A stretch of 64,000 nt of DNA from an uncultured Acidobacteriota bacterium. Lineage in GTDB: Bacteria; Acidobacteriota; Thermoanaerobaculia; UBA5066; Gp7-AA6. Below the pieces are notes generated by a model that ran no database searches, was not told where the DNA came from, and saw nothing but the letters and a program-made list of their open reading frames with translations. Made by a program: the position numbers and the translations under genes. Where the stretch lies: positions 128,001 to 192,000 of the forward strand of contig CAVXTP010000010.1 in assembly GCA_963764715.1 (NCBI GenBank), given 5' to 3'. Position 1 is the stretch's first letter; each line of letters starts with the position of its first letter. Shown here piece by piece: positions 7,671 to 42,129 of the stretch.

Positions 7671-8542
7671 CGGGGCGCCTTCGTCGGGGGCGGGGCTTCC
7701 GGCGGCCCGGGCAGCACGAGCTCGTACTTCGCCCGCATCGCCTTGTAGGCCTTGTCCCACGCTTCGGCCTTGCGTGTCGCGAGCCACGCCGTCTTGACGT
7801 CCGGCTCGACTTCCTCGAACGCGGCGGCGCGCTCCGGCGTCAGCGAATCCACGAAGACGAGGTGCCAGCCGTAGCCCGACTCGATCGGACCCGACCAGGC
7901 GCCCGGCTTCTGGACGAAGAGCGCCCTGGCGAACAGGGGGCCGAAGTCCTTGGCGATCTGGTCGGGCGTGCGGTCGGCGAGGTAGTCCTGGAACATGAAG
8001 GGATCGCCGAGGGCTGCCGCGCCCGGGAAGCTCGCCGGCTTGCCCGCGAGCTTGCCGAGGGCGGCCGTCGCATCCGACCATGCGCTCTTTCCGCGCCGGT
8101 CGGGAGAGAAATAAAGGTGCCGGAACGTGACGCGCGCCGGCTGCGTGAAGAGCTTCGTGTTCTTCCCGAACCACGCCTTCAGCTCCTCGGTCGTCGGCTC
8201 GTGGGAGGCGGAGACGTCCTCGGCGAGGAATTCCATCTTCTGCGCCATGCGACGCCGGACGATGGTGTCGTCCTTGTCGAGGCCCATGGCGAGGGCCTCG
8301 CGATAGAGGATCTCCTCCTTGATCCGGCTCTCGAGCAGGCCCAGCATCTCCTGCTCGTTCGGCGGCCGCTGCCACTGCGCGGCGAAGCCGATCTGGAGCT
8401 GGCGCAGGTCGTCGAGGGTGAGGACGATCTGGCGCGGCGGGGCGGCCGCGCCCGTCGAGGGGTTGACGACGCGCGAGATCGCAAACAACGCGCCGCCGAG
8501 CAGCAGGAAGTGAAGCAGCGGCTCGCGGAGCAGGCGTTTCAT
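7667..8542 (-). CDS. Membrane-anchored PpiC/parvulin-type peptidyl-prolyl isomerase
   Basis: REPLLHFLLLG anchor, EEILYREALAMGLDKDDTIVRRRMAQK, WSGPIESGYGWHLV. Confidence 0.85.
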   Translation of the reverse strand: MKRLLREPLLHFLLLGGALFAISRVVNPSTGAAAPPRQIVLTLDDLRQLQIGFAAQWQRPPNEQEMLGLLESRIKEEILYREALAMGLDKDDTIVRRRMAQKMEFLAEDVSASHEPTTEELKAWFGKNTKLFTQPARVTFRHLYFSPDRRGKSAWSDATAALGKLAGKPASFPGAAALGDPFMFQDYLADRTPDQIAKDFGPLFARALFVQKPGAWSGPIESGYGWHLVFVDSLTPERAAAFEEVEPDVKTAWLATRKAEAWDKAYKAMRAKYELVLPGPPEAPPPTKAPR

Positions 8543-8642: not shown

Positions 8643-10958
8643 TCAGCGAATCGGGGCCAGCTCCGCCACCGCGGGAATGATCTCGTAGTTGGCGTACCCG
8701 AATTCGTTCGAGCGCGCACCAATGTACTTGTCGCCGACCTTGTAGACGCTGATCTCGATCGGGGTGCCGACGATGTCCGTGACGATCTTTCCGCCTGCGA
8801 TGCTGTAGTTCCTCGAGGTCCCCAGGTAGCTGGCCCGGATCGAGTCGCCGGCGAGACTCGGCAGGACCTTCTGACTGACGTAGCGGACCTGGAACTGACC
8901 CTGGTTGGCCGGGAACTGCTGCGTGACGTAGTCGGCCTCGGAAGGCGTCAGGGGTTTCGTGTCGGCGCCTTTGCCGAGCGCCCCGTAGACGACCATGTAC
9001 TTGTCGCCCGTGACGGTGTTCTGAAGCCAGACGGACTTCTGCTCGATCAAGGCCTTGATCTGATCGTCGTTGAGCGCCAAGGCGCCCTTGCTCGTCAGGT
9101 CGGCGACGGTGAGGCCGGGCTTGGCGCTCCGGCGGGCCTCGACGCTCGGCGTGTACCAGATCGGCGAGCCCCAGGCACGCTCCTGAATCGTTGCGGCCAC
9201 GACTTCGGGCGGCGCCATGCCGAGCTTCTTGGCCTGGATGGTCGTCCAGCGCGGCGTCGGAATCTCGAGCACCCGGGCGTAATAGAAAGCGTGGAGGCTC
9301 GGGTCGAACTCGGGGTCGGTCCACAAGGTCTTCAGCTCGACGGAGCCGATCGTGTTGGTGTACGTCGCATTCTCGATGTCCACGGTGCTGCCGATCGGCG
9401 GCACGACGCCGGTCCACTTGTTCGGCTTGCGGTCGCCGGACCAGGCCACGTCGTAGATCTTTTCGAAGCTCTGACCGTTCCTGGCCCAGCCTTTGACAAT
9501 CTGGATCCGGTCGAGGTTGCCGGAGGTGGGGTCCTTCACGGCCCAGACCATGAACGTGGGCGCCTTTCCGGCGGCCGGCGGGAGGTCGCCGCCCATCGGG
9601 ACGCCCTTCGCGTAGCCGGCCTTGACCCAGTCTTTGTCGGCCAGCATCGCGGCCGTGTACTCCCACCCGCCGAAGAGCCTCACCTTGATGTGCGGTCCGG
9701 ACACCGCGAAGGTCTCCTTGCGTTTGATGGCCTCGAAGATCGAGGCGCGGGTGTTTTCTTCGGCCCACGCGCCGGTCAGGCCGGCCGTGCTTTCGGTGCG
9801 CGCATCGAAGAACCCGCCGACGAGGTTGCCGGCCATCCGCACTTCGGGCGTGCCGTCGGTGAACGAGTGCCCGCCGAAGAAGTTGTCCCCGCGGTACGGA
9901 ACCGCCGTGTTGTGCGAGTCGGCGGCGGCTCCGAAGCCAAACTTGTAGGGGTTGAACCCCTTCGTGTCCGCGAGGGCGACCCCGTCCTTCAGCGCCTGGC
10001 GGGCATAGCTGCCGACGAGGTGGGGGACGCGCCCGGGAGGGTTGCCGAGGAGCACCGACATGATTTCGTAGCTCGAGTACTCGTCGTTGGGCGAGAGGAT
10101 CGGGTGCGTCTCGGAGGTGCCCTTCAACTGCTTGATCTCGATGATCGGCTCGTTTCGGGTCCGCGAGGCGGCATACGCGGCGTCGATCGGGCGGCCCTCC
10201 GTATCGACGTCCGTCGGGTACATGCGGCCATCGGAGAGGTTGGCGTTATGCGAAATGGCGAGCAGCTCGTTGCCGGCCTTGCGCTGACCGTCCATCCAGT
10301 TCCAGAGGTCGACCGGATGGTAGGAGTCGAGCGCGCTGAAGGGCGCCACCGGCACGTGCGAGCACTCCTTGAAGAAGACGTTGCGGTGGAGATTCATGCT
10401 GTTCGGCATCGAGGTCCACTCGTACGAGCAGAAGGCGGTGAACTTCCCGGGCTGGTTCGCCTGGTTGGCGAGCTCGATGTTCTTCTTCCAGACGGCGCCG
10501 GCGATTTCCGGGGACATGAGCGACTTGACCGGCGGGCCCGGAACGAGCGTTTGGATCGCGTACAGTGCGACCCTTTCCATCTCCTCCTTCGTCCTCGCCT
10601 TCAGAATGAGGGGCTTCGCCTCGGGGATCTTGCTGACCGGAGACTTGGGGTCGTTGGCGAGCTGGACCACTCCGGCGTATTCGGAGTGATCCGTGACCCC
10701 GGCCCAGTCGAGCGGCGTGTCGATCTTGACGTCGTAGCCGAGCGGATGCTTGATCGCCTCGCCCTTGAAGTACTTGTACGCGTCGCCCGGCGTGGTCAGG
10801 GTGTTGCCGATGGCAAACGCGTCGAGCGACCAGCTCGTGTGGACGTGCGTCTCGCCGAAGTAGGCGTTCTTGTCGGGATTGGGTTGGGCCGAGGCAGTCG
10901 ACCCGACGAGAGCCAGGATGGCGAAACCGAGGGTGAGCACCGAGCGCTTCGAGCGCAT
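8643..10958 (-). CDS. Secreted DUF3604 PHP-fold putative metallohydrolase with a C-terminal extension
   Basis: Signal peptide; [65 protein letters not shown]. Confidence 0.9.
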
Positions 10959-11071
10959 GGGACGACCTCCTTCGTTTTCAGGGACGCGCACCTCAAGCAG
11001 ATCATTCCGGAGGGCGGGGGTCAACGTCGGTGCCACGATCGGCCATCGCGGCCCGTCTTCGTGTCCTCCGG

Positions 11072-13579
11072 TCATTCACTGGCCTTGTTGTTGCGCTGTG
11101 CCTCTTCGAGCTTCTGGATGTCCTCGGGCGAGAGCTGCGGTCGATCGACCTTGATCGTCAGCTTGTGAAGCTTGGCCGTGAGGGCGAACGGAGGCTGGTA
11201 ATCCGCGTCGTTCACGCCGGTCAGGGTGTCCGAGCCGACATCGAAGCTCTCGTCCCACTGCAGAATCATCGGCAGCGTCTTTGCCATCGGCTTCGTGTCG
11301 ACCGCCTTGCCATCGACCTTGAGCGTGCCGGTGCCCGGCCGGCCGACGCCGCTGAAGTTGTTGAACGCCAGCGTGCCGGCGCCCAGGCCGTCGTACTTGA
11401 AGTCGAACTCGACCGTGTGCCGCCCCGGCGGCAGCGCGTCGGGGGCTTCCCACTTCAGGCGCTCGAGATCGACCATGTTCCACAGGAACACCGGCTTGCC
11501 CTTCAGCAGGTAGAAGCCGTAACCGCCGAAGCGCCCGCCCGATGTCAGGATCATTCCCTCGGCGCCGCCCTGCGGCACCTCGATGTCGGCGCTGACCGTA
11601 TAGGAAGTATTCAGCAGCAGAGGCGAGTCGCCCTGCGGCAGGCCGACCATCGGCCGCATGTAGACGAACTCGCTGCGGCCCGCGGTGATGTTCGGACGCG
11701 GTGCGACGATGCGGGCCGCCACCGACGCGTCCATCGGGAACACCTGGTACTTTTTCGCCTCGGCGATGAACGAGTCCTTCATCTCCTTGACCTTCTGCGG
11801 GTTCTTCGCCGCGAGGTCGGCGGTCTGGCTGAAGTCCGTATTCAGGTCGAAGAGCTGGAGGACCTGGTTGTTGAGCGGGTCCGGATTCGCCGGGCCGAAC
11901 GCCTCCCACGGCGCGCGGTTGACCTTGGTGCTCAGGAACCAGCCGTTCTCGTACAGCGCCCACTGTCCCATCATCTCGAAGTACTGCTTCGAGTGCCTCG
12001 ACGGCAATTTCGCATTCTTCGCGTCGAAGGTGTAGGCGAAGCTGGTGCCTTCGATCGGCGCTTGCTTGATGCCGTCGACCATCTCGGGCGCGCGGATGCC
12101 GGCTGCTTCGAGGATCGTCGGCACGACGTCGATGACATGCACGAACTGCTCGCGCAGGGTCCCCTTGTCCTGTATGCGCGCGGGCCAGGACACCACCATG
12201 TTCTGGTTGACGCCGCCCAGCTGCGAGGCGTTCTGCTTGAACCAGGAGAACGGCGTATCGAACGCCCACGACCAGCCGGCCGACATGTGGTTGTAGGTCC
12301 GTTCGGTGCCCCAGACGTCATAGAACTTGAGCTGGACCGCGGCGGGCAGTTTGTTGAGGCCGTTGAAGAACGCCACTTCGTTGGGCGTACCAAGCGGCCC
12401 GCCCTCGGCGGACGTGCCGTTGTCGCCGTTGATGTAGATGATCAGGGTGTTGTCGAGCCTGCCCAGGTTCTCGAAGGTCTGGACCACGCGGCCGATCTCG
12501 TAGTCGCTGTACGCGGCGTAGGCGGCAAAGACCTCGACCTGGCGGATGAAGAGCTTCTTCTCGTCGGCGGTCAGCTCCCCCCACGGCTTCAGGACGTCCT
12601 TCGGCCACGGCGCGAGCCGGGTGTCCTTCGGGATGACTCCCAGACGCTTCTGATTCTCGAAGATGGTCTGGCGCAGCTTCTCGTATCCGCCGCCGAAGAG
12701 CTTCATCGCGTGGATCCGGTCCACCCACTCCTGCGTCGGGTGGTGCGGCGCGTGCGTGGCGCCGGGCGCGTACTTGACGAAGAGGGGCTTCGACGGGGCG
12801 ATCTGGTGCATCCGCGACACGTAGTCGATGGCGTCGTCGGCCATCGCCGTGACCAGGTTCCAGGTGCCCGAAGGCTTGCCCTGGAACGGGTAGATCTGCG
12901 TCGTGTTGCGGAACAGGTTCGGCTCCCACTGGTTGGCGTCGCCGCCGACGAAGCCGTAGAAGTATTCGAAGCCCATTCCGGTCGGCCACTGGTCGAAGGG
13001 GCCGGCCTGGCTGGCAGCGAACGCCGGCACGTTGTGGTCCTTTCCGAACCACGCGGTGGCGTAACCGTTGTCGACGAGGATACGGCCCACGGTGGCCTTG
13101 TCCTTGCCGATGATGCTGTTGTAGCCGGGAAAGCCCGTGGACTGCTCGGAGATCACGCCGAAGCCGGCCGAGTGGTGGTTTCGCCCGGTGATCAGCGCGG
13201 CGCGCGTGGGCGAGCACAGCGCGGTCGAGAACATGCGGTTGTAGCGCAGGCCCTCCCGGGCGATGCGGTCCATCGTTGGCGTCGGGATCACGCCTCCGAA
13301 GGTGCTCGGAACGCCGAACCCCGCGTCGTCAGTGATGATCAGGAGCACGTTGGGCGCGCCCTTCGGCGGCACGACGCGGGGCGCCCACCACGGCTTCGAC
13401 TGGAGGGCGTCGTCTTTGATGACGCCGCCGAACGGCGGATCGGGCGGCGGCAGCTGCTTGCCGTCGATCGAGGTCGTCGCTCCGGGAGCGCCCGGCGGGG
13501 GGGGCTGCTGCGCGAAAACCGGAAGTGCAACCCCCAGAGCGAGAAAGAACAGGCCGAAGCGGAGCCCCTTGGACGGCAT
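11072..13579 (-). CDS. Secreted arylsulfatase (Cys-type, formylglycine-dependent)
   Basis: [28 protein letters not shown] sulfatase signature, [16 protein letters not shown]. Confidence 0.95.
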
Positions 13580-13715
13580 TCGAGAGCCTCCTTGCGTCAC
13601 TACGGTCGGAAAGTGCTTTGCGGGCCTCCGACCCGGTCGTCGGTGTTGCCCGGATCGTCCTGCGTGATGTTGGTCGTGTCCGGCATGAAGACCAGATCCT
13701 GCAAAAGCTCGGTCG

Positions 13716-14039
13716 TCAACGCGGGTGGTTGCCCACGGCTCCGGGTTGGTTCACCCCGGGATCCCGGCCCGCGTTCCCGGCCGCCCCCGGCTGGTTGAGG
13801 CCGGGATCCCGGCCGACGTTGCCCGCGGCTCCCGGCTGGTTGAAGCCGGGGTCCGACGCCGCGCGGACCTGCCTCGCCGAGCCCCCGTAGCCGGTCGCCG
13901 TTGCGCCGGGACGATTGCCGGCGGCGCCGGGCTGGTTGATGCCGCGGTCGCGCTGCGCCTCGGCGGCCGGGGGCGCCCCCATGACGGCCACCGTGACGGC
14001 GAGTGTTGCGATCCAGGCCGAGCGTCTTTTCGCTGTCAT
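13716..14039 (-). CDS. Small secreted repeat peptide (DPGxNQPGAAGN x4)
   Basis: GGAGGAGGAGAG-ATG; signal peptide ending AEA; four near-identical repeats. Confidence 0.8.
   Translation of the reverse strand: MTAKRRSAWIATLAVTVAVMGAPPAAEAQRDRGINQPGAAGNRPGATATGYGGSARQVRAASDPGFNQPGAAGNVGRDPGLNQPGAAGNAGRDPGVNQPGAVGNHPR
13719..13853 (-). repeat. Three tandem 45-bp coding repeats (fourth partial copy at 13914..13949)
   Basis: Units encode DPGFNQPGAAGNVGR, DPGLNQPGAAGNAGR and DPGVNQPGAVGNHPR. Confidence 0.9.
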
Positions 14040-14073
14040 CTCTCCTCCTCCAACCCGGTCCTCGTCATGGCTG

Positions 14074-14919
14074 CTACGGGGCGCCGGGCGTCGGTGGGCC
14101 TGGGGCCGCGGGGCTCGTCGGGTCGCCCGTCGCGAGCAACGCGGCCGTGAACTTCTCGAATGCGAACTCCTTCCCGGCCTCGCCCGGCGGGAAGGTGAAC
14201 GTGCCGTCGGCGATCTGTGGGGCGAGATCCCAGCTCTTGAAATCGATGCGAGCCCTGGGCGCTCCCGGGACCTGCTTGTAGCCGAGCTCCACTCTTCGGG
14301 GCAGCGGCTGACCCGCCGATGGGATCCAGACTCCCACGTCCACGAAGGCGTCGGCGTACGCCAGATGCACGCACTCGACGCCGTCGATCGTCTCGCGTCC
14401 GACCAGCCCGCCTTTCGTGGTCGGGCCGATGAAAGCGTCGTACGGCTTGCTGTAGACGACGTCGGCGATCGGCACCGGGAGCGAGTACCGCCGGGCGACG
14501 TCATCCAGCATTTCGTCGAGCGTTCCGAGCGTCGTCGTCTGCGTCCAGGCCCCGTGCCGGTTGTCGCGAAGCGATACGGTCGAACGGTCGTACCAGGCGG
14601 AAACGTCGGCCGGCGTGTCGCCCGAGCCTTTCACTTGAAATGCCATCGCGCCTGGTCGGCGGACCGTGACCGCCCGGGAGAAGTTCATGACGTGCCCGCC
14701 CGTGCCGGCGACCGGCTCGAGGCTCTCGACTGTCGTGAACCGGAACGCCGAGGCCTTCGCGAGTGTGTCGCTCATCGCGCGCATGAGGCGCTCGCCTTCG
14801 GCGGCCGCCGCCGGCGTGCCCGGACGGGGATCGCGCGAGCACGCCAGGGCGCACACGGCCACGAGAGCCGACGCCGCGGCCGTTCGCCGGAGGGCGGTCG
14901 CCTTCCTCCGGGCCGGCAC
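14074..14919 (-). CDS. DUF2092-family periplasmic/lipoprotein
   Basis: ALACS lipobox, LMRAMSDTLA, VRRPG, GVECVHLAY, VWIPSAGQPLPRR, FTFPP. Confidence 0.8.
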   Translation of the reverse strand: MPARRKATALRRTAAASALVAVCALACSRDPRPGTPAAAAEGERLMRAMSDTLAKASAFRFTTVESLEPVAGTGGHVMNFSRAVTVRRPGAMAFQVKGSGDTPADVSAWYDRSTVSLRDNRHGAWTQTTTLGTLDEMLDDVARRYSLPVPIADVVYSKPYDAFIGPTTKGGLVGRETIDGVECVHLAYADAFVDVGVWIPSAGQPLPRRVELGYKQVPGAPRARIDFKSWDLAPQIADGTFTFPPGEAGKEFAFEKFTAALLATGDPTSPAAPGPPTPGAP

Positions 14920-15480
14920 TTAGCGGACGCCGGGGCCGCGCCCGCCGACGCCGACGCCGTGGAAGCCGGCCCCGACGCCGCCGCCGGCACCGACCCAGTC
15001 GATGAAGAGCGCGGTCTGCCCGCCGGAAGCCGGGAGCTTTCCCTTGATGAGTTTGTAGTTGTAGACCATGTCCGCGCCGTCGACCTTCGGGTGGCTGATC
15101 TCGACGACCACGAGCGTGCTGTCGGCTTGTCCCGGTTCATAGACGGAGAGCACGGCATTCGGCGGGTCCGCTCCGAAATTGTCCTTTCCCGCCTTCGAGG
15201 TCCACTCGTCGAGAAACTCGGACATCTTGAGGTGTCCGGCGATCCGGACGGGCCGGTCCGAAAAGTACAGCGTCTGCTGGCCGATCTTGACCAGTCGAAG
15301 AGTCTGCGCGGCGGCGTCCACCTTCATGTCCTCGGCGACCTGAACGAACATGAGCTGCGCCTTCGGGGCCTCGTCCTTGGGAGCGGGTGTCCATCCCAGC
15401 GAGCCGAGAGCCAGGACGGCGCCCGCGACCAGGGCGGGGCTGTACTTGAGAAACCTGCAGAGATTCTGGGGCGTATGCAT
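14920..15480 (-). CDS. Secreted hypothetical protein with a Gly/Val-rich C-terminal tail
   Basis: LMFVQVA, TLYFSDRPVRIAGH, NFGADPPNAVLS, ALFID; ends GAGGGVGAGFHGVGVGGRGPGVR. Confidence 0.75.
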   Translation of the reverse strand: MHTPQNLCRFLKYSPALVAGAVLALGSLGWTPAPKDEAPKAQLMFVQVAEDMKVDAAAQTLRLVKIGQQTLYFSDRPVRIAGHLKMSEFLDEWTSKAGKDNFGADPPNAVLSVYEPGQADSTLVVVEISHPKVDGADMVYNYKLIKGKLPASGGQTALFIDWVGAGGGVGAGFHGVGVGGRGPGVR

Positions 15481-15521
15481 TTTGCTTTCCTTCGATTTCA
15501 GGAGCCGATGAGCCGTCTTCG

Positions 15522-15959
15522 TCACTGCGTTATCTGCGCCAGGATTTTCGCCTTCGCGGCGTTGTAGTCGCTTTCGCTGATCAGTCCCTGCTTGTAGAGA
15601 GATTCGAGCTCCCCGAGCTTCTGCTGGGGAGTCTTCTGGGCCGTCGTCGCGGGCGCGGCCGCCGCGTGCGCCGCGGCTTGGGCGGCCGCCGCCGAAGCCT
15701 GGGATGCGGCCGCCGCGGACTGCGCCGCCGCCGTCTCGGCCGCCGCGGTCTGCTGGGCCGCCGCCGACTGTTTGGCCGCTGCCGATTCACTGGCCGCCGC
15801 GCTCGACACCGCGACGCTCGTTCCCACGACCGCCCATCGGCGGGCATGCCGGCGCCAGACGCCGAAGATGGCAAAACCCTGCGTCGCGCAGAGGAGCAGC
15901 GCGACTGTCCCCATCACGACCTTCGTCCGGAAGCTGTGTCGGGTGGATTCGGATGTCAT
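15522..15959 (-). CDS. Secreted Ala-rich protein with a C-terminal SHOCT domain (paralog A)
   Basis: KLGELESLYKQGLISESDYNAAKAKIL; N-terminal hydrophobic segment then GVWRRHARR. Confidence 0.85.
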   Translation of the reverse strand: MTSESTRHSFRTKVVMGTVALLLCATQGFAIFGVWRRHARRWAVVGTSVAVSSAAASESAAAKQSAAAQQTAAAETAAAQSAAAASQASAAAAQAAAHAAAAPATTAQKTPQQKLGELESLYKQGLISESDYNAAKAKILAQITQ

Positions 15960-15984: not shown

Positions 15985-16416
15985 TCACTGCGAAAGCTGG
16001 GCGAGGATCTTCGCTTTCGCGGCGTTGTAGTCGCTCTCGCTGATCAATCCCTGCTTGTAGAGTCCCTGAAGCTCTTGGAGCTGCTGTTGCGGGGTCTTCT
16101 GGGAGGCCGCCGGGGCCGGCGCCTTGGCCGCCGCCGCGGCCGACTGAGCCGCCGCCGCGGAGGCCTGGGATGCCGCCGCGGCCGACTGCGCCGCCGCCGT
16201 CTCGGCAGCCGCGGACTGCTGGGCGGCGGCCGACTGCTGCGCCGCGGCCGCGGAGCTCGAGGCGGCCGCTTCCGTGCTGGCGGTCGTGGCCACCACGGCC
16301 GTGGTTCTCCGGGCCGTCCGACGCCAGACGCCGGCGATGCCGAAGCCCTGCGAAGCGCAGAGCAGAAGGGCCATGGTTCCGAGCGCGACGGTCGTCCCGA
16401 GACGTCGGGCGTTCAC
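15985..16416 (-). CDS. Secreted Ala-rich protein with a C-terminal SHOCT domain (paralog B)
   Basis: GTG start overlapping the upstream stop; GVWRRTARR; LQELQGLYKQGLISESDYNAAKAKIL. Confidence 0.85.
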   Translation of the reverse strand: MNARRLGTTVALGTMALLLCASQGFGIAGVWRRTARRTTAVVATTASTEAAASSSAAAAQQSAAAQQSAAAETAAAQSAAAASQASAAAAQSAAAAAKAPAPAASQKTPQQQLQELQGLYKQGLISESDYNAAKAKILAQLSQ

Positions 16417-17712: not shown

Positions 17713-18354
17713 TTAGAGGACCGCGATGCCGTGCTCGAAAGCGAAGCGGACGAGCTCGGCGCCGGTGCGCAGTCCCAGGGCTTCCATCATCTTGTACTTG
17801 TGGAACTCGACCGTACGCGTCGACACGCCGAGCAGGGCCGCGATCTCCTTGGCGGCCTTTCCCGCCGCGAGGAGCTGAAGGATCTCGCGCTGGCGCGGAG
17901 TCAGCGACGCGGCGGCGTCGCCCGCGGGATGACGGGATCGACCATCGGGCGCGACCGCATCGGCGGCGATCTCCGGAGTCACGAACGTCCGGCCGGCCAG
18001 GGCGGCGTGGATCGCCTCGATGAGCTCGGCCGGAGCCGAGGACTTCAGGACGAACCCCGAAGCTCCCGCCGCGAGGGCCCGCCGCGCATAGGCGGTTTCG
18101 CGATGCATGGTGATGACGACGACGCGCGCGTCCGGGTTGTCCTTCTTCAGGAGCGGGATCGCGTCGAGTCCGTTCAGCCGGGGCATCGTGATGTCGGCGA
18201 CGATGACGTCGGGCTTGAGCCGGGCCGCGGCCTCGACCAGGGCCCGGCCGTCCTCGACGAGTCCGACGAGCTCGAACTCGGGGTCGAGGAGGCGCTTGAG
18301 GCCCTCGGCCATCATGCGGTGATCGTCGGCGAGGAGCACGCGGGCGCGCTTCAC
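17713..18354 (-). CDS. NarL/LuxR-family DNA-binding response regulator
   Basis: VLLADDH, VADITMP, GFVLKSSA, LTPRQREILQLLAAGKAAKEIA, RTVEFHKY. Confidence 0.95.
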   Translation of the reverse strand: MKRARVLLADDHRMMAEGLKRLLDPEFELVGLVEDGRALVEAAARLKPDVIVADITMPRLNGLDAIPLLKKDNPDARVVVITMHRETAYARRALAAGASGFVLKSSAPAELIEAIHAALAGRTFVTPEIAADAVAPDGRSRHPAGDAAASLTPRQREILQLLAAGKAAKEIAALLGVSTRTVEFHKYKMMEALGLRTGAELVRFAFEHGIAVL

Positions 18355-20129
18355 GAAGCCCTCGTCTCGGACGGCGCCCAGACCTCGATGGTGGTGCCTC
18401 GCCCGGCGGCGCTCCGGATACCGATCCGCCCGCCGAGCAGCTCTGCCCGTTCCCGCATGCTCGCGAGGCCGAGGCCGGGGCGCAGTCGCTCGGCCAGCGG
18501 ATCGAAGCCCTCGCCGTCGTCGCGGATCGAGAGGCGGACGCCGCCCGACTCCGCCTCCAGGACGAGGTCGACCGCGCTCGCCCGGGCATGGCGCGCCGCG
18601 TTGCGCAGGGCCTCCTGGGCGATCCGGAAGAGTCCGAGCGCGGCGTCGCGCGAGAGGTCGGGGACGGACTCGGGCGCGTGGAGCCGGACCGGGAGCGACT
18701 CGAGGCTCTCCAGGCGTTCGCATTCGATGCGGAGGGCCTCCGTCAGGCCGAGGTCGTCGAGCGTCGAGGGGTGGAGGTGGTAGGCCAGCCGGTGCACGTC
18801 CTCGGAGATCTTCGTCAGCTCGCCGCGCATCTCGGCCGCGGTCCCGGCCTCGTCGCGGGAACTCGAATGGCGCTCGAGCTGCGCCGCGTCGATCGAGAGC
18901 CGGGCCAGACGCTGGCTCAGGTCGTCGTGGAGCTCCCGGGCGATCGACTTGCGCTCGTCCTCCTGGGCCGTGATCAGGAGCCGGTTCAGCGCCCGCACAC
19001 GCTCCTCGGCGCCTTGGCGGCGCCGGCGCTGGGCGAGAAGGCCGGCGATCAGAAGCGTCTCGACCGCGACGACCGCGACTCCGGTCAGGGCCTGGCGGCG
19101 GTAAGCCGCCCAGAGCGACGGCGGGCGGTTGCGCACCTCGCTGCCGGGGGGCAGCCGCCTCTCGTCGATGCTCCAGCGGTGGAGCTCGCGCCAGTCGTAC
19201 AGGTCGCGAAAGGGCTCGACGGGCGGGATCGCGATCTCCGCCGGCGGCTCGCCCCGCAGGAGCGCGAGAGCGACGCCCGCGCTGCGCCGCGCCTCCCGGT
19301 CGATGTCGACGAGCGGCCCGCCCACGATGCCCCGGCCGAGCTGGGTTTCGAAGATGCCGAACACGGGCGAATTGGACGCCGCGCGGATCGCAGCGAGGCC
19401 TTCGTGCTCTTCGTAGGGAACCCCGGCGGCGTCCACGTTGAGCGTCCCGTAGAAGACCGCCGAACGGGGGGGCAGCGCCGCGACCGCGCGGCGCATCCCT
19501 TCGAGCGGCAGCGTGTCGAGCCACTGGAACTCGACGCGCCCCGCGAAGCGCGCGAACTCGCGCTCGGCCTGGACCCGCCAGAACCTCTCGAGCGGCGAAT
19601 TTCCGATCACCATCGCCACCCGGTTCGTTCCCGGGAGCAGGCGGAGAATGTTCTCGACGATGCCCGGCGGGTCGATGTGGATCGGCACGATGACCTGGAT
19701 CGGCGACGGGGGCATCTCCCCGAGCCGTCGAACGTCGAGCCCGGTCGCGAGCACCGGGACGGACTCGAAGAGGGAGAAGCGGTTGCGGGCCACGAAGCTC
19801 GCGGCCGGAGCGCCCACGCTGATCACGAGGTCGAGCTGCCGGTCGCGAACCAGGGCCCGGAGGTAGTCGACGAACGGGCCTTCTTCGCCGGGCTGCGCGA
19901 AGCGCGCCAGCTCCAGGGGCGTCTCGAGGAACTCGACCGGTCCGGGCCACCGGCGGGCGATCTCGGTGCGGATCGAGGCCGTGAACCCGTCCCAGGGCGC
20001 GAAGCGATTGCCGAACGTGCTGACGAGCAGAATCCGGCGGACCTCGGTGTCCGCCGCGGCGAGGTCGTGCGGCCCGCCCAGGACGAGGAGCGCCGCGGAT
20101 GCCGCCAGCGCCCGGGTCAGAAGCCGCAC
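18351..20129 (-). CDS. HisKA_3 sensor histidine kinase with a periplasmic ABC-type binding domain
   Basis: Signal peptide, large periplasmic domain, TM, QEDERKSIARELHDD, QEALRNAARHA, DDGEGFD, GLGLASMRER. Confidence 0.92.
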   Translation of the reverse strand: MRLLTRALAASAALLVLGGPHDLAAADTEVRRILLVSTFGNRFAPWDGFTASIRTEIARRWPGPVEFLETPLELARFAQPGEEGPFVDYLRALVRDRQLDLVISVGAPAASFVARNRFSLFESVPVLATGLDVRRLGEMPPSPIQVIVPIHIDPPGIVENILRLLPGTNRVAMVIGNSPLERFWRVQAEREFARFAGRVEFQWLDTLPLEGMRRAVAALPPRSAVFYGTLNVDAAGVPYEEHEGLAAIRAASNSPVFGIFETQLGRGIVGGPLVDIDREARRSAGVALALLRGEPPAEIAIPPVEPFRDLYDWRELHRWSIDERRLPPGSEVRNRPPSLWAAYRRQALTGVAVVAVETLLIAGLLAQRRRRQGAEERVRALNRLLITAQEDERKSIARELHDDLSQRLARLSIDAAQLERHSSSRDEAGTAAEMRGELTKISEDVHRLAYHLHPSTLDDLGLTEALRIECERLESLESLPVRLHAPESVPDLSRDAALGLFRIAQEALRNAARHARASAVDLVLEAESGGVRLSIRDDGEGFDPLAERLRPGLGLASMRERAELLGGRIGIRSAAGRGTTIEVWAPSETRAS

Positions 20130-38774: not shown

Positions 38775-39452
38775 TCACGGCACGTAGTTGGCGCTGGTGT
38801 CCGCGCCATAGCCGCAGCCCTGGTACGTGCAGTGGAGATCGTCGCGCAGGATGGCGGCCCATCCGCCGGCGCGGCCCGTATCCAGCGAAAGGTTCTCCGT
38901 GAGCACCTTGGTCTCGAACGTCCAGCCCTTGGGCAGGTTCTTCAGCTTGCTCCCCACCGTGTCGAGGTTGTCGGGGGTCAGGCTCGAATCGACCGCCTTG
39001 GTGTATTCCTGCAGGACCCAGACGGGACCGCCCGGCTCGCGCAGCAGATGCACGGGCTTGCCCTTGTGCCAGGTCCAGATCGTGTTGCGCTGGATCAACG
39101 AGGGCACGTAAGCGCTCTGGAACTGGGTCATCATTTCGGCCCCGGTCATGTCGCCCGCCCAATTCATCTTGACGCCATGGAAATCGACGCTGTCGCCGCC
39201 GGCGTAATCCACTTCGTCCATCATCCAGAAGCGGCCGCTGTTGACCGCGCACTGGTCCACTCCGAGCTCCCGCGCCAGCTTCTCCGGATCGATCTTCTTG
39301 TAGTCGTCCGGGCCGACCGGAAGGGAGGCCGCCGTATAGACGTGAGCCCGCTGTGTCTTGCCGATGCCGACGAAGGCGCCCATTCCGCAGAACGCGGCAC
39401 CGCGGGTGTTGTTGGCGTGGACCCTGCGGGTGGGACCGGGCTTGAGTTTCAT
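38775..39452 (-). CDS. Hypothetical protein
   Basis: RFWMMDE, WVLQEY, LKNLPKGWTF; AGGAGG before ATG; may start at 39499 with a frameshift. Confidence 0.7.
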   Translation of the reverse strand: MKLKPGPTRRVHANNTRGAAFCGMGAFVGIGKTQRAHVYTAASLPVGPDDYKKIDPEKLARELGVDQCAVNSGRFWMMDEVDYAGGDSVDFHGVKMNWAGDMTGAEMMTQFQSAYVPSLIQRNTIWTWHKGKPVHLLREPGGPVWVLQEYTKAVDSSLTPDNLDTVGSKLKNLPKGWTFETKVLTENLSLDTGRAGGWAAILRDDLHCTYQGCGYGADTSANYVP

Positions 39453-39539: not shown

Positions 39540-40325
39540 CTAGAATCTGAAGCCGCCCGCGAGCAGCGGCCCCTGAGTCAGGACGTCCCATCGGAAATAG
39601 TCGACTCCCGAGCCCGTCTCGAAGTCCTGGTCGAGCCATCGGTAGCCGATTCCCAGGCTGACGACGCGCGACACCTGCCAGTTCACCCGGGCGATGGCCT
39701 GCCAGGTGAAGTTGGAGCCGACGTGGAAGCCGCCGACGTCGCCGCGCATCTGCAGCTGGAAGGCCTTCGAAAGGGGCAGGAAGGCCTGGGCGCCGACGAT
39801 CGGGTCGAACCAGTCCTCCTCGATCTTCGCCTCGCTGGTGCTCCCGGGAGTCGTCAGCGTGACCGTCGTCCGGAGGTGCGTGTAGCGCCCGCCGGCGAGC
39901 AGCTCGAAGGACTTCGAGATCCTCCAGGCGCCGTCGAGCTCGGCGATGAACTCCTTGACGTCGACCTCCGCCGTGCTGAGCTCCTGGGTGCCCGTGCCGT
40001 CGCCTCCGACGTTCATGTAGATGACGTCGGCCAGCACGGCCCACTTCCGGGCCTCGCCGCGATAGTCGGCGAGCGCCGCGAACTTCAGGTTCCCGAGGAC
40101 GTCCGAGGCGTTCACGTCGATCTGCGTTTGGAGCCGGGCGACGTCGACCGTTCCCGAGATCCAGGGCAGCAGCAGGTAGAGCTCGACGTAGTTGCAGAAC
40201 TCGTTGCTCGTCGAGGCAGCCGGACTCTCCTGCGCGACGGCGCAGGGCGCGAGGAGCGCGATCGAGAGGACGGCAGCCACAATGGCGGGCAAGACTCGGC
40301 CTTTCGACCGCAAGACTCTCGTCAT
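39540..40325 (-). CDS. Outer-membrane beta-barrel protein
   Basis: Signal peptide, YLLLPWISG, WFDPIVG, RGDVGGF, GYRWL, terminal GFRF. Confidence 0.8.
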   Translation of the reverse strand: MTRVLRSKGRVLPAIVAAVLSIALLAPCAVAQESPAASTSNEFCNYVELYLLLPWISGTVDVARLQTQIDVNASDVLGNLKFAALADYRGEARKWAVLADVIYMNVGGDGTGTQELSTAEVDVKEFIAELDGAWRISKSFELLAGGRYTHLRTTVTLTTPGSTSEAKIEEDWFDPIVGAQAFLPLSKAFQLQMRGDVGGFHVGSNFTWQAIARVNWQVSRVVSLGIGYRWLDQDFETGSGVDYFRWDVLTQGPLLAGGFRF

Positions 40326-40735
40326 CGTGTCTCCTTCGTCGCGGCCGCTTCCGGTGCCGCTCCGATCCCGCGAAGCTTGTCCACCGCCGGGAGCAGGTCC
40401 GTCACGATCGCGCGCTTGAGTACGAAGGCGTCGGCACCGGCCTCGAGGGCCGCGCGGCGGACGCTCGGCTCGTCGTGGACGCTCAGAACGATCACACCGA
40501 GCCCGGGGGAACGCTGGCGCAGCGTGCGCAGCCACCCGAGCCCGCTGCCCTGCGCCAGCGAGAGATCCACGACCGCGACGTCGGGCTTGATCCGGGCCGC
40601 GGCCTCGAGCAGCGACGTCTCCTCGGCCACCATGACGACCGTTCCGAACGCCGTTTCGAGGAGACCGCGCACGGCCTCGGTGAGACCGTGATGCCGATCC
40701 GCCAGGAGCACGCAGCTTGGAGATGTTTCGGGCAT
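40322..40735 (-). CDS. Stand-alone receiver-domain protein (atypical ADRH pocket)
   Basis: CVLLADRH, VVDLSL, LSVHDE, GADAFVLKR; paralog of 17119..17652. Confidence 0.8.
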   Translation of the reverse strand: MPETSPSCVLLADRHHGLTEAVRGLLETAFGTVVMVAEETSLLEAAARIKPDVAVVDLSLAQGSGLGWLRTLRQRSPGLGVIVLSVHDEPSVRRAALEAGADAFVLKRAIVTDLLPAVDKLRGIGAAPEAAATKETR

Positions 40736-40987: not shown

Positions 40988-41284
40988 TCAGTCGACGTTG
41001 ACGACGACGTATTGCGAGCCGGACGCCTGGTAGTAGGTCCCGCCGCATTGGTGCAGGCTGACGTTCTCGACGACGACGGTGGTGCATGCCGGCGGCAGGG
41101 TGGCCACGAGGATCGCCGTCCGGCGGATGACGCGACGTGTCGTCCGGCGGGCGACACCGGCCACCGGCCTTCCGGGTGCTCCGACTCCGACGCCGCGCGG
41201 GGGCACGCGCCCATCAATGGTCAGCGAGGCGCCGAGCAGGGCGGAGACCAGGAGGGCCCGGCGCAGGGATTGTTTCGTGCTCAT
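40988..41284 (-). CDS. Small secreted peptide with GVGVGAPG/VAGVARRTTRR motifs and a Cys pair
   Basis: GGAGAGGAG RBS, signal-like N-terminus, LPPAC...QCGGTYYQ..YVVV. Confidence 0.8.
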   Translation of the reverse strand: MSTKQSLRRALLVSALLGASLTIDGRVPPRGVGVGAPGRPVAGVARRTTRRVIRRTAILVATLPPACTTVVVENVSLHQCGGTYYQASGSQYVVVNVD

Positions 41285-42129
41285 GGTTTCTCCTCTCCGA
41301 TCTCGACTTCACCGGTCCCGGTGAGCCGAAGCGACGTGATCCGTTTGGCGCCCGCGGGCGGCGTGAAATCGAAGCGGCCGGCCGGGATCTTCGGCTGAAT
41401 GTCCCAGTCCCGGAGGAGCACCGTGAACTCCGGCGCCGAGGTCATCCACTTCGTGGTGATGACGTACTTCATGGGAAGCGGCTTGTCGCCGGTCTGGATC
41501 CAGATCTGCCAGTCGACCTTCGACGCCCGGAACGCCAGATGATGACATTCCACTCCGTTCACCGAGGTCGTGCCGATGTACTGGCCGCTCGTCACGTCGG
41601 TGAGAAGGCCGGGCAACGGGTCGGAGTACAGCAGATCCGCGCCTGCAAGCTCGAAACCGGTCTCTTCGCCCAGAGCGGTGATGGCGTGATCGAGCGACCC
41701 GGGCGCCGCCATCTGGTAGTAGGCGCCCCGCGACGTGGAGGAGATCGTCACGGTCTTGCCGTCGATGAAGAGCTCGAAGCTTCCGTACGGCGTCCGGCGC
41801 TGCGAGTAGAAGCTTCCGGGCCGGCTGAGCACGAAGTTTCCGGAGCTCGCGAGCTGCAGTTTCTGCCCGTTCATGTCGACGACCTCGGTGTCGACCTCGG
41901 CCTGTGCGCTGTAGGCCGAGAGACGCCCCATGTATTTCGACATCGCCCGCAGGACCTCATCGGCGTCCGGGTCGATGCCGCTGGCGCCGCTCATGGCCGG
42001 CGCGCCGGCGAGACCCAGCGCCGCGACGAGAGCCGCCATGGAGAGGATGCCTCGGATCCTGGTGAATCGACCCTTCATCTTGCCCGTCGCCGCACCGGCC
42101 GCCGCGGCCCAGGTCTTCGGTCTGTTCAT
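41281..42129 (-). CDS. DUF2092-family periplasmic protein
   Basis: VLRAMSKY, GQKLQ, LSRPG, GVECHHLAFR, DWQIWIQTGDKPLPMKYVITTKW, FTPPAGA. Confidence 0.9.
   Translation of the reverse strand: MNRPKTWAAAAGAATGKMKGRFTRIRGILSMAALVAALGLAGAPAMSGASGIDPDADEVLRAMSKYMGRLSAYSAQAEVDTEVVDMNGQKLQLASSGNFVLSRPGSFYSQRRTPYGSFELFIDGKTVTISSTSRGAYYQMAAPGSLDHAITALGEETGFELAGADLLYSDPLPGLLTDVTSGQYIGTTSVNGVECHHLAFRASKVDWQIWIQTGDKPLPMKYVITTKWMTSAPEFTVLLRDWDIQPKIPAGRFDFTPPAGAKRITSLRLTGTGEVEIGEEKP

Follow-up and report, generated by a model that had tools for sequence, protein, structure and literature searches.

A new family of small, predicted exported NQPG-repeat proteins, often encoded beside DUF2092 genes

Small precursors holding several near-identical short cores are known among the multi-core ribosomally synthesized and post-translationally modified peptides (RiPPs), of which cyanobactin-type precursors are an example, and their core number varies between relatives. 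In a different kind of system, a LolA-like periplasmic protein is encoded beside a largely unstructured periplasmic polypeptide, as in the RseA-RseB and MucA-MucB pairs. The excerpted account of these pairs (PMC7400510) describes how RseB and MucB use their LolA-like N-terminal domains to bind the periplasmic polypeptide RseA or MucA and also a lipid, and how the lipid displaces the polypeptide. In excerpts of PMC4520260, DUF2092 is placed within the LolA fold and credited with a hydrophobic cavity that is conserved. Here we describe a gene that lies directly after a DUF2092 gene in a 64,000-nucleotide stretch of DNA from an uncultured Acidobacteriota bacterium (contig CAVXTP010000010.1, positions 128,001 to 192,000; this whole stretch is called the window below). 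The gene occupies positions 13716..14039 of the minus strand and encodes a small protein with four copies of a 12-residue core built around NQPG, hereafter the NQPG-repeat protein. Taking the whole chain of evidence together, we favour a reading of this protein as an intact, multivalent, disordered periplasmic partner of DUF2092 in an envelope operon, although we hold it tentatively and at somewhat less than even confidence.

The open reading frame (ORF) runs from an ATG at 14039 to a stop at 13716-13718, which is included in the interval above, and specifies a pre-protein of 107 amino acids (aa; sequence P0001). A Shine-Dalgarno-like purine run read from the sequence, GGAGGAGGAGAG (14040..14051, minus strand), abuts the ATG. 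An earlier note on this DNA, made from the sequence alone, had described a 107-aa ORF with a strong ribosome-binding site, and both features were confirmed. The G+C content at third codon positions (GC3) was 0.86 in this ORF, compared with 0.84-0.91 in neighbouring genes and 0.69-0.78 in the overlapping plus-strand ORFs. The ratio of non-synonymous to synonymous divergence (dN/dS) between the gene and six acidobacterial orthologues was 0.13-0.24. Within the gene, the four cores differed from each other almost entirely by synonymous changes, with dS from 0.7 to >2, dN of 0.04-0.14 and synonymous sites near saturation. Such divergence implies that the cores have been held by protein-level selection and are not the outcome of a recent DNA duplication, which upholds the selection that the earlier note had suggested from the synonymous differences. 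Tandem Repeats Finder detected a period of 45 nt in the gene (2.2 copies, 85% matches). Translated in six frames, the window contained the string NQPG five times, four of these inside this ORF, and no Rfam family or tRNA matched the 13716-14039 region. Based on GC3, dN/dS, the synonymous pattern of the cores, the rarity of NQPG and the absence of an RNA match, we conclude that 13716-14039 encodes a real gene under protein-level selection and that the frame is the right one. Both strands carry several long ORFs that overlap the region, which is common at 68% G+C; the frame could on this ground be taken not for a gene but for a random ORF of GC-rich DNA, or for the shadow cast by a gene on the opposite strand. 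However, GC3 and dN/dS point to coding in the NQPG-repeat frame, hundreds of homologues have the same start, signal peptide and stop, and the strong ribosome-binding site stands before the ATG of a region with no RNA match, so that this reading is effectively refuted.

The pre-protein begins with a Sec-type signal peptide (aa 1-28; 13956..14039, minus strand), with a predicted cut before Q29. The presequence is MTAKRRSAWIATLAVTVAVMGAPPAAEA, followed by QRD. It consists of KRR, then AWIATLAVTVAVMGA, a hydrophobic core of 15 residues, and then AEA. The basic n-region, the h-region, the small residues at -3 and -1 and the absence of a lipobox Cys are all as expected for Sec export and cleavage by signal peptidase I, and AlphaFold2 predicted a helix for residues 3-21. 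An RR pair is also present in the n-region, yet it is not conserved across the family, and Tat export was rejected. Four cores follow on the minus strand and were read from the translation: DRGINQPGAAGN (core 1, aa 31-42; 13914..13949), DPGFNQPGAAGN (core 2, aa 63-74; 13818..13853), DPGLNQPGAAGN (core 3, aa 78-89; 13773..13808) and DPGVNQPGAVGN (core 4, aa 93-104; 13728..13763), the last of which is succeeded by a basic C-terminus, HPR. Cores 1 and 2 are set apart by a spacer of 20 aa, RPGATATGYGGSARQVRAAS (aa 43-62; 13854-13913, minus strand), which is conserved in the family. Within it lies a basic element, GGSARQVRAA (aa 52-61; 13857..13886, minus strand), recognised by its conservation in the family. 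The consensus of the cores is D(P/R)GxNQPGA(A/V)GN, a turn-rich motif of 12 residues with one hydrophobic residue (I/F/L/V) per copy. The earlier note had reported a signal peptide ending in AEA and four such cores, and both were found as described, with cores starting at aa 31, 63, 78 and 93. It had also described tandem cores joined by GR-D; this arrangement, with xGR-D joints, holds for cores 2-4 and fails for core 1, which is set off by the 20-aa spacer. The predicted mature chain has 79 aa, a mass of 7.7 kDa, an isoelectric point (pI) of 11.5, a net charge of +4, a grand average of hydropathy of -0.97 and neither Cys nor Met. Calcium binding (EF-hand or RTX-like) and glycosylation sequons were considered by eye and rejected, as the spacing and residues did not fit and the protein is basic.

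A word-indexed search identified 485 relatives (clusters at 90% identity, 58-188 aa, E<=0.01) among 590 candidates, the best match having 97% identity (E = 2.7e-58). Among the 120 best matches listed, none had a precomputed Pfam domain and the sole name was 'hypothetical protein'. An exhaustive phmmer search of 1.84 billion representatives recovered 117 clusters (50% identity, 33-199 aa) at E<=0.001, 45 of which reached 1e-10. No match for the NQPG-repeat protein was found in Pfam, NCBIfam, PADLOC or PHROGs, or by tblastn against plasmids. A search of the PDB with the family profile returned no relative (best E = 0.35), and matches in the ESM Atlas were confined to unnamed 'hypothetical' clusters with scores <0.9. 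The full-text literature search for NQPGAAGN, DPGINQPG and DPGVNQPG detected no paper, while the string NQPGA occurred in the searched literature only in papers on the VK247 repeat of the Plasmodium vivax circumsporozoite protein (CSP). Judged by these searches, the NQPG-repeat proteins are a new protein family, of which no description was found in the literature and curated databases searched.

A genome scan in which each species was represented by a single genome confirmed 133 relatives, and the loci of 80 of them were taken for further analysis. Carriers were found in Acidobacteriota, in Beta- and Gammaproteobacteria (Pseudomonadota), in Desulfobacterales (Thermodesulfobacteriota) and in a metagenome-assembled genome (MAG) of Methylomirabilota (NC10). 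The proteobacterial carriers were Accumulibacter, Dechloromonas, Propionivibrio, Thiobacillus, Thiocapsa, Lamprocystis, Methylococcaceae and Uliginosibacterium, among them the cultured strains Thiocapsa roseopersicina DSM 217 and Uliginosibacterium aquaticum IMCC34675. Among the genomes scanned, the nearest relatives of the window protein were from uncultured Acidobacteriota (82% identity). The presence of the family in Thiocapsa and other Chromatiaceae had prompted the idea of a sulfur-globule protein, but this was dropped since the family is widespread in Acidobacteriota that do not store sulfur. Four longer, fused relatives were found, all of them mis-called starts or probable frameshift chimeras and not true fusions. 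One of them, a 199-aa sequence on a contig of 1368 bp (P0124), combines the N-terminal half of DUF2092 with the NQPG peptide and most probably arose through a frameshift or an assembly error spanning two adjoining genes. A 5-copy protein at 7953-8405 of locus L050 has nearly the same design as the protein of locus L053, from an uncultured lake gammaproteobacterium; the label of the L050 record, a Klebsiella pneumoniae MAG, looks doubtful.

Family anatomy was tabulated from 223 members of <200 aa with at least two NQPG, a selection that fixes the residues N, Q, P and G. Two copies of the core were present in 37 members, three in 69, four in 85 and five in 32, and the highest number among the loci was seven, in L053. 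Ahead of NQPG, the core had D (99%), P (78%) or R (19%), G (99%) and then the variable position x, occupied by I (32%), V (30%), L (20%) or F (12%). Behind NQPG it had A (85%), A (64%) or V (24%), G (99%) and N (96%). Eight of the 12 positions were 96-100% invariant across four phyla, four of these eight being the NQPG that was fixed by the picking of members. At position x the same mix of I, V, L and F was found inside single proteins. Among 558 junctions, Arg stood just ahead of the D of the core in 276, Val in 104, Gly in 52, Ala in 48 and Ser in 32. Successive cores were spaced by 15 residues in 267 of these junctions, with a whole range of 13-54. Junctions without Arg include those of a Thiocapsa member (...GIGVDPG) and of the NC10 member (...VGADPG), and whole lineages use V, G or A. 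The earlier note had made its proposal depend on homologues that share the core and the junction: the core was conserved but the junction was not.

Linkers varied from a single R up to long GVGAPGVGV-type stretches in proteobacteria, whose look we take to be elastin-like. The element GGSARQ(V/T)RA, scored as GGSA[RA]Q, was present in 115 of the 223 members, and a related regular expression matched 95 of the 223, against 0.25 expected in shuffles. Members without this element end in tails of the RR(G)xRR type, and most C-termini in the family are RR or RRR. Of the 223 members, 216 had a presequence of 18 aa or longer. Signal-peptide statistics were obtained with a heuristic of our own and not with SignalP. 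By this heuristic, a cut was predicted in 207 members, with A (178), G (21) or S (8) at -1 and with V, A or L at -3 in 181. The highest hydropathy over 12 residues of the presequence had a median of 2.39. The predicted cut fell 0-4 residues ahead of the first repeat, so that the mature protein would consist almost wholly of repeats. The average composition of the mature part was G 23%, A 13%, R 11%, P 11%, N 10%, V 9%, Q 7% and D 5%, and its median pI and net charge were 11.7 and +5.

The mature chain is predicted to be disordered. AlphaFold2, given 98 aligned sequences, returned a mean pLDDT (predicted local distance difference test) of 54.7, with nearly all of the mature part <50, and was confident only for the helix of the signal peptide. 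An amyloid, which the earlier note had offered as one option, is not what a mature part predicted as coil at these pLDDT values and with this Gly and Pro content suggests. The closest physical analogue in published work is the VK247 repeat of P. vivax CSP, ANGAGNQPG, with 22-33% G and 7-11% P (PMC8809896). Excerpts of that study report, from circular dichroism and molecular dynamics on these repeats, a highly disordered chain with transient beta-turns and harmonic-spring behaviour, and its authors place the repeats in a transition zone between amyloid-prone and elastomeric sequences. By the criterion given in these excerpts, the G and P contents of the mature NQPG family are in the range of the CSP repeats and hence in the same zone. 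The string NQPGA is common to the two, and their G/P/N/Q-rich compositions are very similar. However, CSP is a eukaryotic surface antigen built of 9-residue units, and there is no evidence of shared descent with the NQPG family. We treat the resemblance as convergent low complexity, which bears on the physics of the chain and not on its function.

The gene is part of a run of minus-strand genes that overlap or are separated by short gaps. The run is headed by a sensor kinase (18351-20129), a NarL-type regulator, a receiver protein, a DUF1579 protein and two SHOCT proteins. It continues with a 201-aa exported protein (14920..15525), the DUF2092 protein (14074..14919), the NQPG-repeat protein, an 842-aa sulfatase (11072-13600) and a DUF3604 protein (8643-11075), the latter two being identified by Pfam. 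The 201-aa protein has a Gly-rich basic tail and no Pfam or NCBIfam match. Only 34 nt separate the end of the DUF2092 gene from the peptide gene, and the sulfatase gene starts ~115 nt downstream of the latter, which agrees with the position given in the earlier note, after DUF2092 and before the sulfatase. No terminator-like site was found between these three genes. The product of 14074..14919, the proposed partner, matched Pfam DUF2092 with E = 3.8e-42 and has a lipobox-like N-terminus, ...ALAC-S. Acidobacterial DUF2092 proteins in general have a lipobox-like ...(A/T)AC-S(R/S)DP N-terminus and for this reason are probably lipoproteins; proteobacterial DUF2092 proteins have ordinary signal peptides.

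Synteny was examined in 78 loci with at least two NQPG in one frame, namely 77 fetched loci and the window (L048, L068 and L075 had fewer than two motifs and were dropped). In 44 of the 78, a DUF2092 gene of the same orientation was found no more than 800 bp away, upstream in 37 and downstream in 7. These included the window and 15 of the 16 other acidobacterial loci, the exception having just 41 bp of upstream flank. The corresponding counts were 22 of 52 in Pseudomonadota, two of three in Thermodesulfobacteriota, one of one in Methylomirabilota and three of the five loci with no phylum assigned. A maximum-likelihood tree was built from 52 DUF2092 sequences, with one wrong-frame row omitted. 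In this tree, the window DUF2092 (14074-14919) belonged to a clade of 14 acidobacterial sequences, each with a peptide gene behind it (98 in the Shimodaira-Hasegawa-like approximate likelihood ratio test, SH-aLRT). A second DUF2092 of the window grouped with four betaproteobacterial (Thiobacillus) copies, all followed by a protein with a two-Cys domain (SH-aLRT 96, 5 rows). The neighbour labels were clustered in the tree, which is a clustering of labels and no demonstration of co-evolution.

This second DUF2092 gene (41281-42129, minus strand) belongs to a paralogous two-gene module (40988..42129). The other gene of the module (40988-41284, minus strand) encodes a 98-aa protein with a signal peptide, a Gly-rich stretch, GVGVGAPGRPVAGVARRTTRR, the basic motif AGVARRTTRRVIRR and a two-Cys, DUF6515-like C-terminal domain. 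It matched Pfam DUF6515 (PF20125) with 26.8 bits, above the cut-off of 24.9, whereas the NQPG-repeat protein of the window had no match to this family and has no Cys domain. We distinguish three architectures. Type A, that of the window protein, has a signal peptide, repeats and a basic element; type B has the same parts followed by the Cys domain; type C, represented by the 98-aa protein, has a signal peptide, a short linker, a basic element and the Cys domain. A protein of locus L067 has three NQPG repeats ahead of the two-Cys domain. A search with its C-terminal domain alone detected 45 proteins, 26 of which had 1-3 NQPG repeats before GGVARR(T/A)(T/A)RR and the Cys domain; the remaining 19 had the same Cys domain and no repeats. 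In Thiobacillus-type loci the modules stand in tandem, in the order DUF2092a, peptide, DUF2092b, Cys-domain protein. The DUF6515-like type C proteins resemble the NQPG-repeat protein in being small, exported and encoded directly after a DUF2092 paralogue. They have the basic element G-V-A-R-R-x-x-R-R, and type B unites their Cys domain with NQPG repeats. Unlike them, the window protein lacks the Cys domain and shows no profile-detectable homology to them. The link between types A and C is, as read from these sequences, an architectural one that passes through the chimeric type B.

Other neighbours were surveyed among ORFs within 5 kb of the peptide gene at 74 loci (the window and three others were left out), with ORF-based calls that were clustered by BLAST. 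The most frequent same-strand neighbours were a sulfatase, an outer-membrane beta-barrel and a small Cys-domain protein (16 loci each). These were followed by DUF1254/DUF1214 (10), an unnamed family, c13 (9), DUF1579 (8), a MetA-like porin (8) and homologues of the 201-aa protein (6). Patatin, a MscK-type channel, MlaD/PqiA, FadL, SulP, rhodanese, DUF3313 and regulators of the LuxR and sigma-54 types also recurred. No peptidase, ABC/PCAT exporter, radical-SAM or YcaO protein, or similar, was present among the Pfam matches of the 60 neighbour clusters that were found in at least four of the 74 loci. Where DUF2092 was not adjacent (34 loci), the neighbours were heterogeneous, some being other members of the recurring set and some housekeeping genes (38 of 60 flanking ORFs were scanned). 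No maturase, protease or exporter was identified among these 38 ORFs or in the window. The earlier note had recognised no modifying enzyme near the gene, and this observation extends to the recurrent clusters. Kinase and regulator genes were near the peptide gene in a minority of loci only.

The earlier note had compared the protein to a precursor cut after Arg into 15-mers. Several observations speak against this: about half of the junctions have R before D, about half have the 15-residue spacing, no processing machinery recurs, and in 26 of the 45 sister proteins the repeats are not free-standing but fused ahead of a folded-looking domain. Since neither junction nor spacing is conserved, no processing genes recur and type B fuses the repeats, we suggest that the mature 79-residue chain acts whole and not as released peptides; the fusion to the two-Cys domain fits a flexible arm better than a precursor. 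In the mechanism that we propose, the pre-protein would be exported by the Sec pathway and most likely cut after AEA by signal peptidase I. In the envelope, the chain would then serve as a flexible, multivalent partner, chiefly of the putatively LolA-like DUF2092 (lipo)protein encoded just upstream. The repeats may be short docking motifs equivalent to one another, each exposing a single hydrophobic side chain between its DPG and NQPG turns. The basic element or tail may provide a second contact, to DUF2092 or to an anionic component of the envelope. Disordered proteins rarely keep a near letter-perfect 12-residue motif across phyla, and such motifs usually mark a specific interaction. The results show a real gene with an export signal, a conserved motif, a predicted disordered chain, synteny with DUF2092 and a repeat module that recurs in sister proteins; escape from cleavage, binding to DUF2092 and the biological role are our inferences.

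In the RseB and MucB pairs the polypeptide is bound and the lipid competes for the hydrophobic cavity (excerpts of PMC7400510). The arrangement in the window is alike in that DUF2092, with its putative LolA fold, is encoded beside a predicted disordered periplasmic polypeptide within an envelope operon. Unlike RseA, the NQPG-repeat protein has a cleavable-looking signal peptide and tandem repeats and no membrane-anchored anti-sigma domain, and its partner would be DUF2092 and not a member of the MucB_RseB family. No extracytoplasmic function (ECF) sigma or anti-sigma domain was detected in the peptide or its neighbours by Pfam scans of the window and the recurrent clusters. The NQPG-repeat protein lacks two features of the RseA/RseB system, the anti-sigma anchor and the ECF sigma factor, yet it may work alike.

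Several results weigh against a partnership with DUF2092. A total of 34 of the 78 loci lacked a DUF2092 gene within 800 bp, several of them with ample flank and with housekeeping neighbours (ribonucleotide reductase, LpxC, thiolase), so that the NQPG-repeat protein can exist without a neighbouring DUF2092 gene. Beyond the literature, the likeness of DUF2092 to LolA was weak: LolA was matched by four of 31 members (best E = 0.03) and LolB by two of 31, and the LolA structure 8orn in the PDB matched DUF2092 with E = 0.27. The profile-profile probability for the type A repeats and the repeat-less Cys-domain proteins was 3.7%, and we claim no homology between them. Moreover, a motif this invariant across phyla (99% for D and for both G residues) could equally be a site of recognition or processing by an enzyme.

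One alternative is that the protein is an autonomous envelope material: an exported, basic chain, rich in Gly, Pro and Asn, that acts as an entropic spring or fills space and has no particular protein partner. It would work by elasticity, by coacervation or by coating anionic lipopolysaccharide, glucans or peptidoglycan with its Arg-rich tail, and the adjacency of DUF2092 would reflect co-regulation only. The G and P content is like that of the CSP repeats that behave as springs, although by the criterion in the same excerpts (PMC8809896) it reaches only the transition zone and is not that of a true elastomer. Predicted disorder and the high pI and net charge of the family agree with such a material, as do the long GVGAPGVGV-type linkers between cores in proteobacterial members and a copy number that varies freely (2-5 in the protein set, up to seven among the loci). 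The 34 loci without an adjacent DUF2092 also fit, and genes for mechanosensitive channels, patatin, MlaD/PqiA and FadL recur nearby. However, 79 aa is very short for a material. Proteins that act through bulk properties usually tolerate sequence drift, whereas the eight nearly invariant core positions, even with NQPG fixed by the choice of members, point to specific recognition. We regard this alternative as plausible but on the whole rather unlikely.

A multi-core precursor, from which a protease would free near-identical peptides of 12-15 residues after export, as signals (for example to the kinase at 18351-20129) or as bioactive products, accords with the repeated, highly conserved cores, with their variable linkers and copy number and with cores that are under selection and nearly saturated at synonymous sites. 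The xGR-D junctions of the window protein recur in about half of all junctions, and a histidine kinase and a response regulator head the same operon. The other half of the junctions nevertheless lack Arg, in whole lineages, and no peptidase, exporter or modifying enzyme was seen in the recurrent clusters or in the scanned flanks of loci without DUF2092. In addition, kinase and regulator genes accompany a minority of loci, the mix of I, V, L and F within single proteins is unlike a specificity code, and repeats are also fused to a folded-looking domain. Compared with multi-core RiPP precursors, the NQPG-repeat protein has a Sec signal peptide in place of a leader, and it has neither conserved flanking sites for cleavage or recognition nor a cognate protease, maturase or exporter nearby. 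We consider a cut precursor unlikely. An enzyme handle, in which DPGxNQPGAAGN is the recognition site for modification or cross-linking (e.g. to an envelope polymer) and the repeats multiply the points of attachment, seems slightly less probable again. It would account for a motif that is extremely invariant within an otherwise disordered chain. Uncharacterised, periplasmic enzyme-like neighbours also recur (sulfatase, DUF3604, DUF1254/DUF1214, c13 and c41), with an L,D-transpeptidase at one locus. No single enzyme family co-occurs consistently, however, the commonest being the sulfatase at 16 loci, and the motif has no Lys, Cys, Ser or Thr, the residues usual for known cross-links and glycosylation.

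The remaining observations concern other genes of the window and of related loci. The window sulfatase has 85-87% protein identity to sulfatases beside NQPG genes in betaproteobacterial MAGs (L060, 3777-6320; L021, 3777-6581), while the window DUF2092 is only ~25% identical to proteobacterial DUF2092. From these identities, it looks like part of the gene set was recently transferred across phyla. Homologues of the 201-aa protein with 61-64% identity were found in loci L041 (7381-7923), L022, L036, L023, L008 and L051; they occur in Accumulibacter, Propionivibrio, Lamprocystis and Acidobacteriaceae loci. The tail of this protein, GVGVG.RG.G.R, recalls the linkers and tails of the NQPG family, and the order DUF1579, SHOCT, 201-aa protein, peptide is common to the window and L041. 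The two tandem SHOCT proteins of the window (15522-15959 and ~15985-16400, minus strand) are small, each with one hydrophobic segment followed by GVWRR(H/T)ARR, a long low-complexity region rich in Ala and Gln, and a C-terminal SHOCT domain. GVWRR(H/T)ARR resembles the GVARRTTRR of Cys-domain proteins. The basic motif G[VS][AW]R[RQ]..R[RA] was tried as a marker of the gene set and matched four real genes of the window but also two non-coding frames; it is too weak for this purpose because Arg-rich, GC-rich DNA yields non-coding matches.

The window also holds two bestrophin-like genes, two DUF4136 and two DUF2490 genes, and genes for patatin, rhodanese, DUF3300 and a MetA-like porin. Also present are a fusion of pyridine-nucleotide-disulfide oxidoreductase and rhodanese, a gene of the c13 family (38775-39452) and an outer-membrane barrel (39540-40535). 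The 64 kb are rich in exported families and families of unassigned function that flank NQPG genes in other phyla. In two Methylococcaceae loci, a gene for a UbiE-type methyltransferase follows the peptide gene (L073, 8352-9098; L080, 8353-9099) and one for a sigma-54 activator precedes it. A methyltransferase gene of a related class follows the peptide gene in a Pseudomonadota MAG (L058, 1131-1907). None of the three methyltransferases has an obvious export signal.

A more speculative extension, to which we assign a low probability, is a hitherto unrecognised periplasmic device made of two parts. In it, DUF2092, as a (lipo)protein of LolA fold, would read the disordered, multivalent NQPG-repeat protein, and the pair would serve as a switch or buffer for the lipid status of the envelope. 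The repeats would be driven out when the cavity of DUF2092 takes up a lipid or some other hydrophobic ligand, or would themselves drive the ligand out, in a manner like that of RseB and RseA but with unrelated parts. The small partner would be interchangeable, consisting of NQPG repeats, a DUF6515-like Cys domain or both, and horizontal transfer would have carried the device into at least four phyla of bacteria from soil, wetland and activated sludge. If instead a cut precursor were the true reading, the family would represent a Sec-exported multi-core peptide system without a known maturase, which would also be new. As an intact multivalent partner, the NQPG-repeat protein would add a bacterial periplasmic case to the proteins that work through multivalent short linear motifs. 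The family travels with uncharacterised envelope genes (DUF2092, DUF6515-like, DUF1579, DUF1254/DUF1214, the sulfatase, MetA-like and FadL porins, and patatin), and its carriers are relevant to soil carbon cycling and to phosphorus removal from wastewater. Knowledge of the binding target of the repeat would offer a starting point for understanding DUF2092 and the entire set of envelope genes.

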